Shown here piece by piece: positions 24,758 to 30,192 of a stretch of 30,192 bases of DNA. The notes below the pieces were generated by a model. The model was not told the DNA's origin. It worked only from the letters and a program-made list of their open reading frames with translations, and did no database searches. The stretch lies in the IMG/VR virus record IMGVR_UViG_3300029071_000017. One strand, written 5' to 3'. The position numbers were made by a program, and so were the translations under genes. This DNA is from a virus. Taxonomy: Duplodnaviria; Heunggongvirae; Uroviricota; Caudoviricetes. Position 1 is the stretch's first letter, and every line of letters begins with the position of its first letter.

Positions 24758-24769
24758 TCAATGTTTATG

Positions 24770-24792
24770 AACCTGCTTCGGCAGGTTTTTTT
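24770..24792 (+). terminator. Intrinsic terminator of the repressor gene
   Basis: AACCTGC-TTCG-GCAGGTT hairpin followed by 7 T directly after the repressor stop. Approximate coordinates. Confidence 0.7.
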
Positions 24793-24796
24793 ATAC

Positions 24797-24830
24797 TTGA
24801 CAATGTACCTTTTAGATACATAATGTACCC
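24797..24830 (+). promoter_or_regulatory. pL-like early promoter with operator-like AATGTACC repeats
   Basis: TTGACA-16 nt-CATAAT; AATGTACC occurs at -35/spacer and again overlapping -10, the same TGTACC core as the OR palindromes. Approximate coordinates. Confidence 0.6.
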
Positions 24831-24991
24831 AGGCGAAACAACAAACAGGCAGGACGTCCATGAAGTAGCCCCCTGGAGCATATGAAGTCCAGGATGATTC
24901 GTTAGCAACAAAAAAGCGCCCTACAGGACGCTTAGCTCTTTAACAATCTGGTCCCCATCAACAAGTAACTGATAACTTGAGGAGGTGTGAA

Positions 24992-25198
24992 ATGCACAAA
25001 ACAGAACCCAAAATCGTCGCGCCCGGATACACAAATGAGGAAATTTACGAGTGGATGGCAAAGAAGCTGGCAGCTATAAACCAGCTTCGTGAAGTGCTGT
25101 CTTATCGACAGGAAACAATAGACTCCTTAAAAAAACTGGATCAGGAAATCACGGTTTTATCACAGGATGTTACTTTAGATATTGTGCAGACAAATTAG
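24992..25198 (+). CDS. Small hypothetical protein (68 aa), first ORF of the rightward early operon
   Basis: ORF 24977-25198; start set at MHKTEPKIV with GAGGAGG 6 nt upstream; no Arg-rich motif, so not an N-type antiterminator. Confidence 0.45.
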   Translation: MHKTEPKIVAPGYTNEEIYEWMAKKLAAINQLREVLSYRQETIDSLKKLDQEITVLSQDVTLDIVQTN

Positions 25199-25604
25199 GA
25201 TCCCATTCATTTTCGTCAAAATCATCAAAGTGATGAATTTGTGATCTCCAGTCTCGATAATCTAAAAATTTCTGGGCGGTTACGCTTATTTTATCAAGTG
25301 TGAGTTCATCCTGAATTGAAAGAAGAAGTTCATCAAATTTCATCTCATTAATCTGTTTTGGCATCCAGTGATGCTTCATCAGAATAAGGTGAACCAGAGC
25401 CTTTTTCCCATTCAACTGATTATAGGGAGTGCCGAATTTCTTCCGGTGCTCATGTAAGACAAGGTCCAGAAGAGTAAGTAATGTTGCCCTTGATTCGACT
25501 TTGCTTATTTCGACTGATGACACTACCCCACTGATTTCAATGCCCCGATACTTTCCAACATTTTCACAGTGGGATTTGTACAGCGTGTAGATATTACCGG
25601 ACAT
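25170..25604 (-). CDS. Hypothetical 144-aa protein, AT-rich, convergent to the early operon
   Basis: Clean ORF antisense to pL-direction transcription, AT-rich relative to flanks, AAGGA RBS; 3' end overlaps the 68-aa ORF by about 29 nt. Confidence 0.5.
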   Translation of the reverse strand: MSGNIYTLYKSHCENVGKYRGIEISGVVSSVEISKVESRATLLTLLDLVLHEHRKKFGTPYNQLNGKKALVHLILMKHHWMPKQINEMKFDELLLSIQDELTLDKISVTAQKFLDYRDWRSQIHHFDDFDENEWDPNLSAQYLK

Positions 25605-26148
25605 TTCTTTTCCTTTTGCGTTGTTGGGGATAACCAGATTAACCGAATCCTTGTTGTTGGGGAATAACCAGGTCCACCTCGCCTGATGTGGCTAAAAGCA
25701 GGCACATAACAGCTAAGTATTTTCAACCAGAGAGAATCCTTAGCGTTGTGGTGAATGCGGCTCAGCGCACGCGGGTTAAGGTTGAGGCTGACAGTCGACC
25801 TTCTGTGGATACCCACCCGCCTGGTGTGCAACCTTCGCCAGGCACCGGGAGGCACCCGGCACCACAACTTTATGCTGTGTGTAGTCCTGGCGGTACCAGT
25901 TTGTACCCTTGCTTCCGGCTGGTACCGTCCTTTTTACAAAACAGAGAAGAGCATCACCGGACGACGGGCTCATAACCCAATCCATCCGGGCGGCTGCCAC
26001 CGCAGGTGTTCTTCTCTGTTTTGTGGAGAAACTAACCGCCCCTACGGGGGCATTTATGGAAATGTAATTGACTCAATAATCGCCGGACGGTGAGGGCTTC
26101 CTTTTACCCGAATTCAGCGCGGTGCAGCGCATATACGTGGAGAACAAA
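25605..26148. other. GC-rich non-coding region with direct and inverted repeats (candidate structured RNA / regulatory region)
   Basis: No credible ORF. Direct repeats TTGTTGGGGATAACCAG and TTGTTGGGGAATAACCAG (about 25621-25671); 9-bp inverted repeat CGGTACCAG/CTGGTACCG (about 25891-25927) followed by TTTTT; 15-bp perfect inverted repeat ACAAAACAGAGAAGA/TCTTCTCTGTTTTGT (about 25936-25950 and 26010-26024). Confidence 0.4.
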
Positions 26149-26685
26149 ATGTCATTTATTAAAACTTTTTCCGGGAAGCATTTTTATTATGACAGGATAA
26201 ATAAAGACGACATCGTTATTAACGATATCGCGGTTTCCCTTTCAAATATCTGTCGCTTTGCAGGACATCTTTCACACTTCTACAGTGTCGCCCAACATGC
26301 GGTGCTTTGCAGCCAGCTGGTGCCGCAGGAATTTGCTTTTGAAGCTTTAATGCATGATGCAACAGAAGCATATTGCCAGGACATCCCCGCACCACTGAAA
26401 CGACTTCTTCCTGACTATAAACGGATGGAAGAAAAAATAGACGCCGTAATCCGTGAGAAATACGGGTTACCTCCTGTTATGAGCACGCCAGTGAAATATG
26501 CCGATCTCATTATGCTGGCAACCGAACGCCGCGATCTCGGGCTTGATGATGGCTCTTTCTGGCCTGTGCTGGAAGGTATCCCGGCAACAGAGATGTTCAA
26601 CGTGATTCCACTGGCTCCAGGCCATGCCTACGGGATGTTTATGGAACGCTTTAACGAATTATCGGAGTTACGCAAATGCGCATGA
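26149..26685 (+). CDS. HD-domain phosphohydrolase
   Basis: ORF 26122-26685; start set at MSFIKTF with GGAG upstream; His...HD pattern (...SVAQHAV..., ...LMHDATEAY...). Confidence 0.6.
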   Translation: MSFIKTFSGKHFYYDRINKDDIVINDIAVSLSNICRFAGHLSHFYSVAQHAVLCSQLVPQEFAFEALMHDATEAYCQDIPAPLKRLLPDYKRMEEKIDAVIREKYGLPPVMSTPVKYADLIMLATERRDLGLDDGSFWPVLEGIPATEMFNVIPLAPGHAYGMFMERFNELSELRKCA

Positions 26686-27038
26686 ATGTTTTCGAAATGG
26701 AAGGGTTTCTTCGTGGGAGATGTGTACCGCGAGATCTGAAAGTGAATGAAACGGATGCTGAATACCTGGTGCGTAAATTCGATGCGCTTGAAGCTAAATG
26801 TGCAGCACAGGAAAACAAAGTAATACCAGTGTCAACTGAACTGCCACCAGCAAATGAAAGTGTTTTGTTATTCGATGCTAACGGAGAAGGCTGGCTAATT
26901 GGCTGGCGTTCTCTCTGGTACACCTGGGGACAAAAAGAAACCGGAGAATGGCAGTGGACATTTCAGGTCGGGGACCTTGAAAACGTCAATATCACTCACT
27001 GGGCAGTAATGCCAAAAGCACCGGAGGCTGGAGCATAA
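26676..27038 (+). CDS. Hypothetical early protein (Trp-rich small protein)
   Basis: 120-aa ORF overlapping the HD gene end by 10 nt; same strand and operon as xis/int. Confidence 0.5.
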   Translation: MRMNVFEMEGFLRGRCVPRDLKVNETDAEYLVRKFDALEAKCAAQENKVIPVSTELPPANESVLLFDANGEGWLIGWRSLWYTWGQKETGEWQWTFQVGDLENVNITHWAVMPKAPEAGA

Positions 27039-27343
27039 TGACCACTTTTACCGACAAAGAACTGATTAAAGAAATTAAAGAGCGTATCAGCAGCCTTGAC
27101 GTGCGAGACGATATTGAGCGCCGTGCTTATGAAATCGCACTCCTATCTCTGGAAGTAGAACCAGATGAACGCGAAGCTTATGAATTATTCATGGAAAAGC
27201 GTTTTGGTGACTTAGTAGATCGTCGGAGAGCAAAAAACGGCGATAACGAATACATGGCATGGGATATGACTCTCGGTTGGATCGTCTGGCAGCAACGAGC
27301 TGGTATCCATTTCTCAACAATGTCACAGCAAGAGGTGAAATAA
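27038..27343 (+). CDS. Hypothetical early protein
   Basis: 101-aa ORF with ATGA overlap upstream and TAATG overlap with xis. Confidence 0.5.
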   Translation: MTTFTDKELIKEIKERISSLDVRDDIERRAYEIALLSLEVEPDEREAYELFMEKRFGDLVDRRRAKNGDNEYMAWDMTLGWIVWQQRAGIHFSTMSQQEVK

Positions 27344-27693
27344 TGGAGCCATACAGCCTCACACTCGATGAGGCCTGTCATTTTCTCAAGATATCCAGAC
27401 CGACTGCCATTAACTGGATACGCACAGGGCGTCTTCAGGCAACACGCAAAGATCCCACTAAGAATAAATCTCCTTACCTCACAACACGACAAGCCTGCAT
27501 TGCGGCTCTTCAGTCTCCGCTGCATACTGTCCAGGTGAGCGCGGGTGATGGCATAACAGAGGAAAGAAAATGTCACTCTTCCGCAGAGGTGAAATATGGT
27601 ACGCCAGTTTCACATTGCCGAACGGTAAAAGATTTAAACAGTCTCTTGGAACAAAGGACAAAAGGCAGGCGACAGAACTCCATGACAAGCTAA
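27343..27693 (+). CDS. xis: Excisionase (P22-type)
   Basis: ORF 27259-27693; start set at [38 protein letters not shown], which resembles P22 Xis as I recall it; immediately upstream of and overlapping int. Confidence 0.75.
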
Positions 27694-28733
27694 AGGCTGA
27701 AGCATGGCGGGTCAGCAAACTTGGTGAAATACCTGATATAACGTTCGAGGAAGCGTGTGTCAGGTGGCTTGAAGAGAAAGCACATAAAAAATCACTGGAC
27801 GATGACAAAAGCCGGATCGGATTCTGGCTTCAACATTTCGCAGGAATGCAACTAAGAGACATTACTGAATCAAAAATTTATTCAGCAATGCAGAAAATGA
27901 CGAACCGGCGTCATGAGGAAAACTGGAAACTCAGGGCAGAAGCATGCAGAAAAAAAGGGAAACCTGTTCCAGAATACACGCCAAAACCAGCGTCCGTTGC
28001 AACGAAGGCTACGCATCTTTCATTTATAAAGGCCCTACTAAGAGCCGCAGAGCGTGAATGGAAAATGCTGGATAAGGCACCAATTATTAAAGTGCCTCAA
28101 CCAAAGAATAAACGGATCCGCTGGCTGGAGCCCCATGAAGCACAAAGGCTGATTGATGAATGTCCGGAGCCATTAAAGTCTGTTGTTGAATTTGCACTGG
28201 CAACAGGCTTAAGACGCTCGAACATCATCAACCTTGAATGGCAACAAATAGATATGCAGCGCCGGGTGGCATGGATAAACCCGGAAGAGAGTAAATCAAA
28301 CCGCGCAATTGGCGTTGCGCTGAATGATACTGCATGTCGCGTATTGAAAAAACAAATCGGGAATCATCACCGTTGGGTATTTGTGTACAAGGAAAGCTGT
28401 ACCAAACCAGACGGAACGAAAGCGCCAACAGTAAGGAAGATGCGGTATGACGCAAACACAGCCTGGAAAGCGGCGCTGAGACGGGCTGGTATTGATGATT
28501 TCAGATTTCACGACTTGAGACACACCTGGGCAAGTTGGCTGGTTCAAGCCGGAGTCCCGTTGTCAGTGTTACAGGAAATGGGAGGCTGGGAGTCTATCGA
28601 AATGGTTCGTCGATATGCTCACCTTGCACCTAATCACCTTACCGAACACGCACGGCAAATAGACTCGATCCTGAACCCATCGGTCCCAAATTTGTCCCAG
28701 TCAAAAAATAAGGAAGGTACTAATGATGTGTAA
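27570..28733 (+). CDS. int: Tyrosine integrase (P22 Int-like)
   Basis: 387-aa [51 protein letters not shown]...; C-terminal R...HDLRHTWAS...MVRRYAHL catalytic signature; ends 14 nt before the tRNA 3' end. Confidence 0.9.
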
Positions 28734-28747
28734 CTTATTGATTTAAA

Positions 28748-28823
28748 TGGTGCCGATAATAGGAGTCGAACCTACGACCTTCGCATTACGAATGCGCTGC
28801 TCTACCAACTGAGCTATATCGGC
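28748..28823 (-). tRNA. thrW: tRNA-Thr (anticodon CGU), thrW-type; prophage attachment site at its 3' end
   Basis: Reverse complement reads GCCGATATAGCTCAGTTGGTAGAGCAGCGCATTCGTAATGCGAAGGTCGTAGGTTCGACTCCTATTATCGGCACCA: 7-bp acceptor stem, CGT anticodon in a 7-nt loop, T-arm GGTTCGACTCC, 3' CCA. Coordinates within 1 bp. Confidence 0.9.
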
Positions 28824-28938: not shown

Positions 28939-30192
28939 TTACGCACGAACGGTGTAATCACCAATACCGATCCACTTGTAGGTGGTCAGCGCTTCCAGCC
29001 CCATTGGTCCGCGTGCGTGGAGTTTTTGCGTGCTTACCGCCACTTCCGCGCCAAGACCAAACTGGCCGCCGTCGGTGAAACGTGTAGACGCGTTAACGTA
29101 AACAGCAGAGGAGTCCACTTCATTGACAAAACGCTGGGCATTGCGCATATCACGCGTCAGGATCGCATCGGAGTGTTGCGTCCCGTGTTCACGAATATGG
29201 GCGATGGCGTCGTCAAGATCGCTGACGATTTTGACGTTCAAATCTAACGACAGGAATTCATCGTCATACTCTTCCGCCTTAACAGCCACCACTTTCGCAG
29301 ATCCTGCCTGCAACTGCGCCAGTGCCGCAGCATCGGCGTGTAACGTCACGCCGCTTTCCGCCATTTGCTTGCTTAACGCAGGCAGGAAGTTATCAGCGAT
29401 GTTTTTATTCACCAGCAACGTTTCTACCGTATTGCAGGTACTCGGACGCTGGGTTTTCGCGTTGACGATCACTTTCAGGGCTGCAGAAATGTCAGCACTT
29501 TCATCAACGTAAATATGGCAGACGCCAATGCCGCCAGTGATCACCGGAATTGTCGACTGCTCGCGGCACAGCTTATGCAAACCAGCACCACCACGCGGGA
29601 TCAACATGTCGATGTATTTATCCATGCGCAGCATTTCACTCACCAGCGCGCGATCCGGATTATCAATCGCCTGCACTGCGCCTGCCGGTAAACCGCAGGA
29701 TTTCAGGGCGTCCTGAATCACCGCTACCGTTGCAGCGTTAGTGCGACAGGTTTCTTTGCCGCCGCGCAGGATCACCGCGTTACCGGTTTTCAGACACAGC
29801 GAAGCGACATCAACTGTCACGTTCGGACGCGCTTCATAAATTACACCTATAACACCCAGCGGCACGCGGCGACGCTCCAGACGCAGACCGCTGTCCAGCA
29901 CACCTCCATCAATCACCTGCCCTACCGGATCGGCAAGATTACACACCTGCCGCACATCGTCGGCAATGCCTTTCAGGCGCGCGGGCGTTAACGCCAGACG
30001 GTCAAGCATCGCTTCGCTAAGGCCATTGGCACGCGCGTCAGCAACATCCTGGGCGTTAGCATCGAGGATGCTTTCGCTCTGTGCTTCCAGCTCATCAGCG
30101 ATCTTTTCCAGCACGCGATTTTTTTCGCGGCTGGAGAGTTGCGCTAATTTATACGAGGCTTGCTTCGCAGCAATGCCCATTTGTTCCAGCAT
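28939..30192 (-). CDS. proA: Gamma-glutamyl phosphate reductase (host gene, complete)
   Basis: 417-aa [41 protein letters not shown]... matches E. coli ProA; start codon is the last three bases of the window. Confidence 0.95.

Follow-up and report, generated by a model that had tools for sequence, protein, structure and literature searches.

The stretch of phage DNA studied here, which we call the window, comprises 30,192 nucleotides (nt) of the IMG/VR virus record IMGVR_UViG_3300029071_000017 (Caudoviricetes). The gene under consideration lies at 26149-26685 on its plus strand, where an intact open reading frame (ORF) of 178 codons runs from an ATG at 26149 to a TGA stop at 26683-26685, with a Shine-Dalgarno motif (GGAG, 26139-26142, plus strand) read from the sequence 6 nt before the start codon. 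This ORF stands far above chance expectation, its product matching PHROG 318 with an E-value of 6e-110; clustered at 50% identity, its homologues fall into 22,731 representative clusters at E ≤ 1e-3, or 15,309 when the cut-off is tightened to 1e-10. The ORF is the Escherichia coli prophage gene yfdR, which has already been annotated and partly characterised and so is not new. The window protein is identical to YfdR of E. coli K-12 (b2361, from the cryptic prophage CPS-53) at 176 of 178 residues, the sole differences being K16R and D169E, both conservative, and the DNA between 25600 and 27100 occurs with 100% identity in several complete E. coli chromosomes. The Prokaryotic Genome Annotation Pipeline (PGAP) labels that identical DNA as "yfdR: 5'-deoxynucleotidase", "yfdS", "yfdT" and "ECs1072 family", and PHROG 318 carries the name "deoxyribonucleoside 5' monophosphate phosphatase" or an equivalent, so that near-identity, profile and PGAP name all place the protein in the YfdR family. 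Of 5426 complete E. coli genomes, 2971 carry the gene at a nucleotide identity of about 90% or more, and it is present too in phages SfII, SKA5, SfV, SfIV and many Stx2c phages, whose copies are labelled "deoxyribonucleoside 5' monophosphate phosphatase" or "hydrolase of HD superfamily". The match to SfII has 98.5% identity across 95% of the 1.5-kb query, the gene being the same as SfII_34 and as one of SfV orf28-30. The earlier note on this DNA, made from the letters alone, missed both the known yfdR identity and the binding to DnaA that the literature describes for this HD-domain 5'-deoxynucleotidase. Identity, motif, fold, synteny and distribution were computed in the present analysis, and catalysis and DnaA binding are taken from the literature.

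Examination of the protein identified the complete H...HD...D set of metal ligands that characterises the HD superfamily, all encoded on the plus strand: His50 (codon 26296-26298, in SVAQH), the dyad His69-Asp70 (26353-26358, in LMHDATE) and the distal Asp119 (26503-26505, in VKYAD). The ORF and the His...HD motif proposed for it by the earlier note were thus both borne out. We aligned 61 full-length homologues that are 39-68% identical to the window YfdR, and the metal-binding residues, whose loss would have spoken against a phosphohydrolase, were retained. His50 is invariant together with G39, S46, K84 and E126, and the other ligands belong to the residues conserved in at least 90% of the sequences (R36, H40, H69, D70, E73, D78, K116, D119 and W138). 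The dyad aligns with those of E. coli YfbR and of Atu1052 from Agrobacterium tumefaciens, and is followed by E73 and D78 within the block HDATEAYCQDIPAPLK, whose counterpart in YfbR is HDASEVLTGDLPTPVK; Asp119 aligns with VKQAD of YfbR and IKKAD of Atu1052. Because MAFFT and hhalign place the first histidine of YfbR (H33) differently with respect to H50, the assignment of H50 as a ligand rests on its alignment with the histidine of the SVAQH/TVAQH motif of Atu1052, on family conservation and on the fold.

The AlphaFold2 model of YfdR, obtained with the 61-sequence alignment as input, reached a predicted local distance difference test score of 97.6 and a predicted template modelling (TM) score of 0.92, and predicts the all-helical fold of HD proteins. 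In the structure comparison the best match of this model was Atu1052 (PDB 2GZ4), with a score of 22.3 and a root-mean-square deviation of 2.1 Å over 178 residues, followed by PH0347 (9.6), human HDDC2 (9.5), DatZ of cyanophage S-2L (9.5), YfbR (9.4) and OxsA (9.2), and Foldseek gave a concordant result. BFVD places the same fold in numerous phages, phiCbK, Atu_ph04 and phiKT among them, with TM scores of 0.85-0.91. Searching the PDB with the single YfdR sequence returned 2GZ4 as the sole match, YfbR and Lin2634 being reached only by the family profile (E-values of 1.8e-30 for 2GZ4, 3e-5 for Lin2634 and 1.4e-4 for YfbR), and hhalign related the YfdR family to YfbR with 94.5% probability across the block HDAxE....D.PxPxK. 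YfdR is a member of an Atu1052-like subfamily of the HD superfamily that is related to YfbR, and not a YfbR orthologue. The comparison to YfbR-type enzymes proposed at the outset held as far as relatedness is concerned, the closest structure being Atu1052. Atu1052 is itself an HD protein of structural-genomics origin with no assigned function, for which our literature search (as Atu1052 or 2GZ4) found no published one. It differs from YfdR in being only about 26% identical and encoded by a chromosomal gene of an alphaproteobacterium. The 5'-deoxynucleotidase YfbR (PDB 2PAQ, 2PAR, 2PAU) is about 20% identical to YfdR and is the product of a housekeeping gene, with no known binding to DnaA. DatZ (6ZPA), OxsA and HDDC2 are likewise of low identity (18-21%), and DatZ and OxsA act on substrates of other kinds, namely dATP and oxetanocin phosphates.

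The activities published for YfdR come mainly from Noguchi and Katayama 2016 (PMC4776307), who describe an HD domain and a structural homology to YfbR. As summarised there from Zimmerman 2008, the K-12 protein is a weak deoxynucleoside monophosphate (dNMP) phosphatase, with an affinity for nucleotides reportedly far below that of YfbR. Purified YfdR binds domains I-II of DnaA, for which DnaA Phe46 is important, and moderately inhibits the binding of DiaA and of DnaB to DnaA (PMC4776307). In multicopy, yfdQ and yfdR together with yfdS or yfdT suppressed the over-initiation of hda-185 and inhibited wild-type initiation, and the same authors noted the SfV homologues and suggested that the ancestral role resembled the one of lambda P, in which host replication would be inhibited to the benefit of the phage (PMC4776307). 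Later reviews and an eLife paper restate this view. By analogy, the binding to DnaA domain I published for the K-12 protein may be expected of the window YfdR, which is 99% identical to it and carries conservative differences only.

Downstream of yfdR the genes form an overlapping, co-directional series on the plus strand. The first 10 nt of yfdS (26676-27038; Pfam DUF551, PHROG 583, annotated yfdS) are shared with the end of yfdR, the ATG of yfdT (27038-27343) overlaps the yfdS stop codon in TAATG, and xis (27259-27693, HTH_17) and int (27570-28733) follow in turn. A minus-strand tRNA-Thr(CGT) gene, thrW (28748-28823), ends the series directly beyond int, and this position marks the end of the prophage and its junction with the chromosome at thrW, which is the attachment site of Shigella serotype-converting phages. 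The 417-amino-acid ORF beyond the tRNA (28939-30192, minus strand) may be proA, as the synteny of thrW and proA would suggest. On the other side, a terminator hairpin with a T-run (24769-24788, plus strand) lies directly behind a cI-like repressor gene, and the promoter scan placed behind it a near-consensus sigma-70 site (TTGACA-16-CATAAT, 24797-24824, plus strand), which from its sequence is plausible as the equivalent of pL; the region examined yielded no N-like antiterminator. As the earlier note stated, yfdR is co-directional with this promoter-like site, with one opposite-strand gene and several terminator-like hairpins in between. The opposite-strand gene is a phage-associated member of the ECs1072 family (25170-25604, minus strand; NCBIfam NF033230, PHROG 5286), sits between the repressor and a structured RNA module described below, and is convergent with an ORF of 68-73 amino acids (24977-25198, plus strand; PHROG 1744) that it overlaps by 29 nt. 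This ECs1072-family gene is missing from many otherwise similar loci and resembles an optional moron. Immediately before yfdR lies a 111-nt leader (26038-26148, plus strand), which begins with a small GC hairpin (26037-26052) and accompanies yfdR with 91-100% identity in every context: behind yfdQ in K-12, and likewise in SfII and the IMG/VR loci. The promoter scan found no promoter-like site within the leader, and given the intervening hairpins a pL-type transcript would therefore have to read through them to reach yfdR.

A peculiarity of the locus is the absence of yfdP and yfdQ. In K-12 and most relatives these two genes lie directly upstream of yfdR, whereas neither was found anywhere in the 30-kb window, nor in SfII, so that of the cluster yfdQ-yfdR-yfdS-yfdT the last two genes are present and overlapping while yfdQ is missing. 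The K-12 locus is otherwise alike, with the same leader, the same yfdS-yfdT downstream and the same PGAP name; it differs in carrying yfdP-yfdQ where the window and SfII have an STnc100-like RNA module abutting the leader, and CPS-53/KpLE1 is integrated at argW rather than at thrW. Among 80 IMG/VR loci with a YfdR at least 94% identical, yfdQ lies between the position of this RNA element and yfdR in 66, of which 63 also have yfdP. Our scan of GTDB genomes found yfdP-yfdQ directly upstream of YfdR homologues in 13-14 loci of Enterobacterales (YfdQ 53-67% identical), a cI-type repressor at most 4 kb upstream in 11 loci, and linked YfdS and YfdT in 3 and 1, respectively. Beside homologues at most 50% identical the context scan, which used tblastn and was confined to the window's own neighbours, did not detect those neighbours, apart from isolated hits in Proteus (L147), Pseudomonas (L152) and Paraburkholderia (L141). 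The breakpoint at 26037/26038 falls within the small GC hairpin of the leader, which resembles those flanking yfdP-yfdQ in fuller prophages (compare L024, 2585-3890), and this junction is consistent with a deletion or exchange at a module boundary.

Taking identity, motif, fold and setting together, we assign a probability of roughly 0.88 to the reading in which the window ORF, as yfdR, is cargo of the int-proximal early-left operon and encodes an HD 5'-deoxynucleotidase. Under this reading the operon would be that of lambdoid prophages of the SfII/SfV/CPS-53 type, here integrated at thrW, and YfdR would be a small all-helical HD enzyme in which a divalent metal is bound by H50, H69, D70 and D119. 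The metal would activate a water molecule for hydrolysis of the nucleotide 5'-phosphate ester, and E73, D78 and R36 lie at the positions of the catalytic and substrate residues in YfbR-type 5'-deoxynucleotidases. Upon prophage induction yfdR would probably share a transcript with yfdS, yfdT, xis and int and be coupled to them in translation, and the conserved enzyme activity may be the function under selection. Conservation of the catalytic residues remains strong in YfdR homologues of distant phyla, in which DnaA contacts of the E. coli type cannot be assumed, and this argues that hydrolysis is ancestral and selected and that DnaA binding is an addition in the enterobacterial prophage protein.

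Several points weigh against this assignment. YfdR remains below the curated cut-offs for YfbR (Pfam PF12917, 24.3 against 25.9; NCBIfam equivalog NF003009, 19.9 against 122), and therefore, even though PF12917 recognises 56 of the 61 aligned homologues at E ≤ 0.01, it is no orthologue and its substrate preference could differ. The kinetic claims follow the summary given in PMC4776307. Noguchi and Katayama themselves term the function "elusive", report no phenotype for the yfdQRST deletion and consider that the overexpression effect is possibly an artefact (PMC4776307), while in an engineering study that counts yfdR among the reported phosphatases of cytidine monophosphate (CMP), deleting it left the CMP yield unchanged. 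Finally, yfdQ is needed for the inhibition of replication (PMC4776307) and is missing here, so that the DnaA-related phenotype may be inoperative both here and in SfII, which makes the enzyme activity the likelier function in this prophage.

The Atu1052/YfdR subfamily is very large, frequent in phages and structurally distinct from YfbR. A broader proposal, which we regard as unlikely, is that its true substrate is not the ordinary dNMPs but perhaps a damaged, modified or regulatory nucleotide, and that YfdR forms with YfdP and YfdQ (DUF2303), its conserved partners in enterobacteria, a phage module manipulating host replication initiation or nucleotide metabolism, the present locus then being a natural variant that lacks yfdPQ and in which YfdR would act alone.

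We consider it very improbable that YfdR is a phosphodiesterase of cyclic or signalling nucleotides, acting for instance in counter-defence against CBASS, Pycsar or Thoeris-type messengers, or on cyclic di-GMP or cyclic di-AMP. Cyclic-nucleotide phosphodiesterases do exist in the HD superfamily, yfdR lies within an early phage operon of accessory genes, and the low dNMP affinity, as summarised in PMC4776307, leaves room for another true substrate. Neither the similarity nor the GYP motif expected of the HD-GYP, PgpH and V-cGAP subfamilies was found in YfdR, however, and the structure comparison gave low scores to HD-GYP proteins (4.1-4.3), V-cGAP3 (4.7) and PgpH (5.2). The functional proposal of the earlier note is thus retained for the phosphohydrolase and abandoned for a role on signalling nucleotides or as a nuclease. 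A PADLOC scan of YfdR, YfdS, YfdT, the ECs1072-family protein, the 73-amino-acid ORF, YfdQ and YfdP gave no match. Just as poor are the prospects of a dNTP/NTP triphosphohydrolase or pyrophosphohydrolase that reshapes nucleotide pools as DatZ or OxsA do, instead of a monophosphatase. In the structure comparison DatZ scores 9.5 and Dgt-type dNTPases score 4.4-4.7. Against such an enzyme stand the mere 21% sequence identity of YfdR to DatZ, the far stronger assignment to dNMP phosphatases by both PHROG and PGAP, and the published activity on nucleoside monophosphates as cited in PMC4776307.

The earlier note had also placed yfdR directly downstream of a structured non-coding region, and this location was correct. 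The region (25605-26148, about 545 nt) has no credible protein gene and includes three structured parts. The first (25715-25937, plus strand) matches the Rfam family RF02076 (STnc100) over its full length with 43.1 bits (E 5e-8), which is below the gathering score of 47, is closed by a terminator hairpin of 13 bp and a U-run, and folds into a multi-branch structure with a z-score of -3.1 against shuffled controls; judged from its sequence, it is a divergent relative of STnc100, an established family of prophage-borne small RNAs (sRNAs). A 2026 preprint groups STnc100 with the PasD prophage sRNAs. The second part is a terminator-like 18-bp hairpin followed by GUUUUG (25938-26022, plus strand), located between the sRNA and the leader and showing pair-preserving substitutions with respect to the copy in the K-12 prophage e14, and the third, likewise terminator-like, is the small GC hairpin at the start of the leader. 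The RNA module heads the int-proximal operon in this prophage and in e14. A 112-amino-acid ORF that covers much of the RNA (25755-26093, a "hypothetical protein"; ymfH in e14, NC_000913.3 1201069-1201380) was considered as a real gene and rejected: it has no Pfam or PHROG match, PGAP reports it frameshifted in one genome, two 1-nt indels separate its copies in the window and in e14, and the hairpin substitutions between these copies keep pairing (G-U to G-C, C-G to U-G), so that the coding sequence annotated over the RNA is probably spurious.

The functional link that had been proposed between this region and yfdR did not hold: the earlier note had named a lack of conserved linkage to neighbouring elements as refuting, and for the non-coding element linkage is indeed not conserved. 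The two are adjacent and co-directional in the window and in SfII. In e14 the element, annotated there as coding sequence ymfH, lies between ymfI/ymfJ and xisE-intE, directly before the excision and integration genes, with no yfdR, and CPS-53 has yfdR without the element. Of the complete E. coli genomes, 2971 carry yfdR and 1816 the element at a coverage of at least 80%, but no more than 415 show the two joined as in the window. Among the 80 IMG/VR loci the full sRNA lies within 2.5 kb in only 34, and the direct adjacency of the window is seen in about 10, yfdQ intervening in most. One locus (L007) has, between cI and yfdP, about 480 nt with no Rfam match and no sRNA, and YfdR homologues of other species retain yfdP-yfdQ as neighbours. 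In about 45 other IMG/VR loci, as in L007 (2435-2584), only the last 50 nt or so of the sRNA, with its terminator hairpin, and the long hairpin are kept, the 5' part being different, shorter and without an Rfam match, which suggests alternative 5' modules joined to a common 3' terminator cassette. The relation between element and yfdR is at most positional, the upstream RNA being an optional, independent sRNA/terminator module, and a specific regulation of yfdR by this RNA, or an enzyme that processes or acts with it, can be set aside as having almost no probability. Since the two occur independently, their analyses are best kept separate.

The window gene, correctly recognised as an HD phosphohydrolase, proves to be one that had already been annotated, and in part characterised, in E. 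coli prophages, and is in itself of limited significance. The absence of yfdPQ from the locus is a modest observation that does not amount to a new type of system, and the negative result on the RNA link is a useful by-product.
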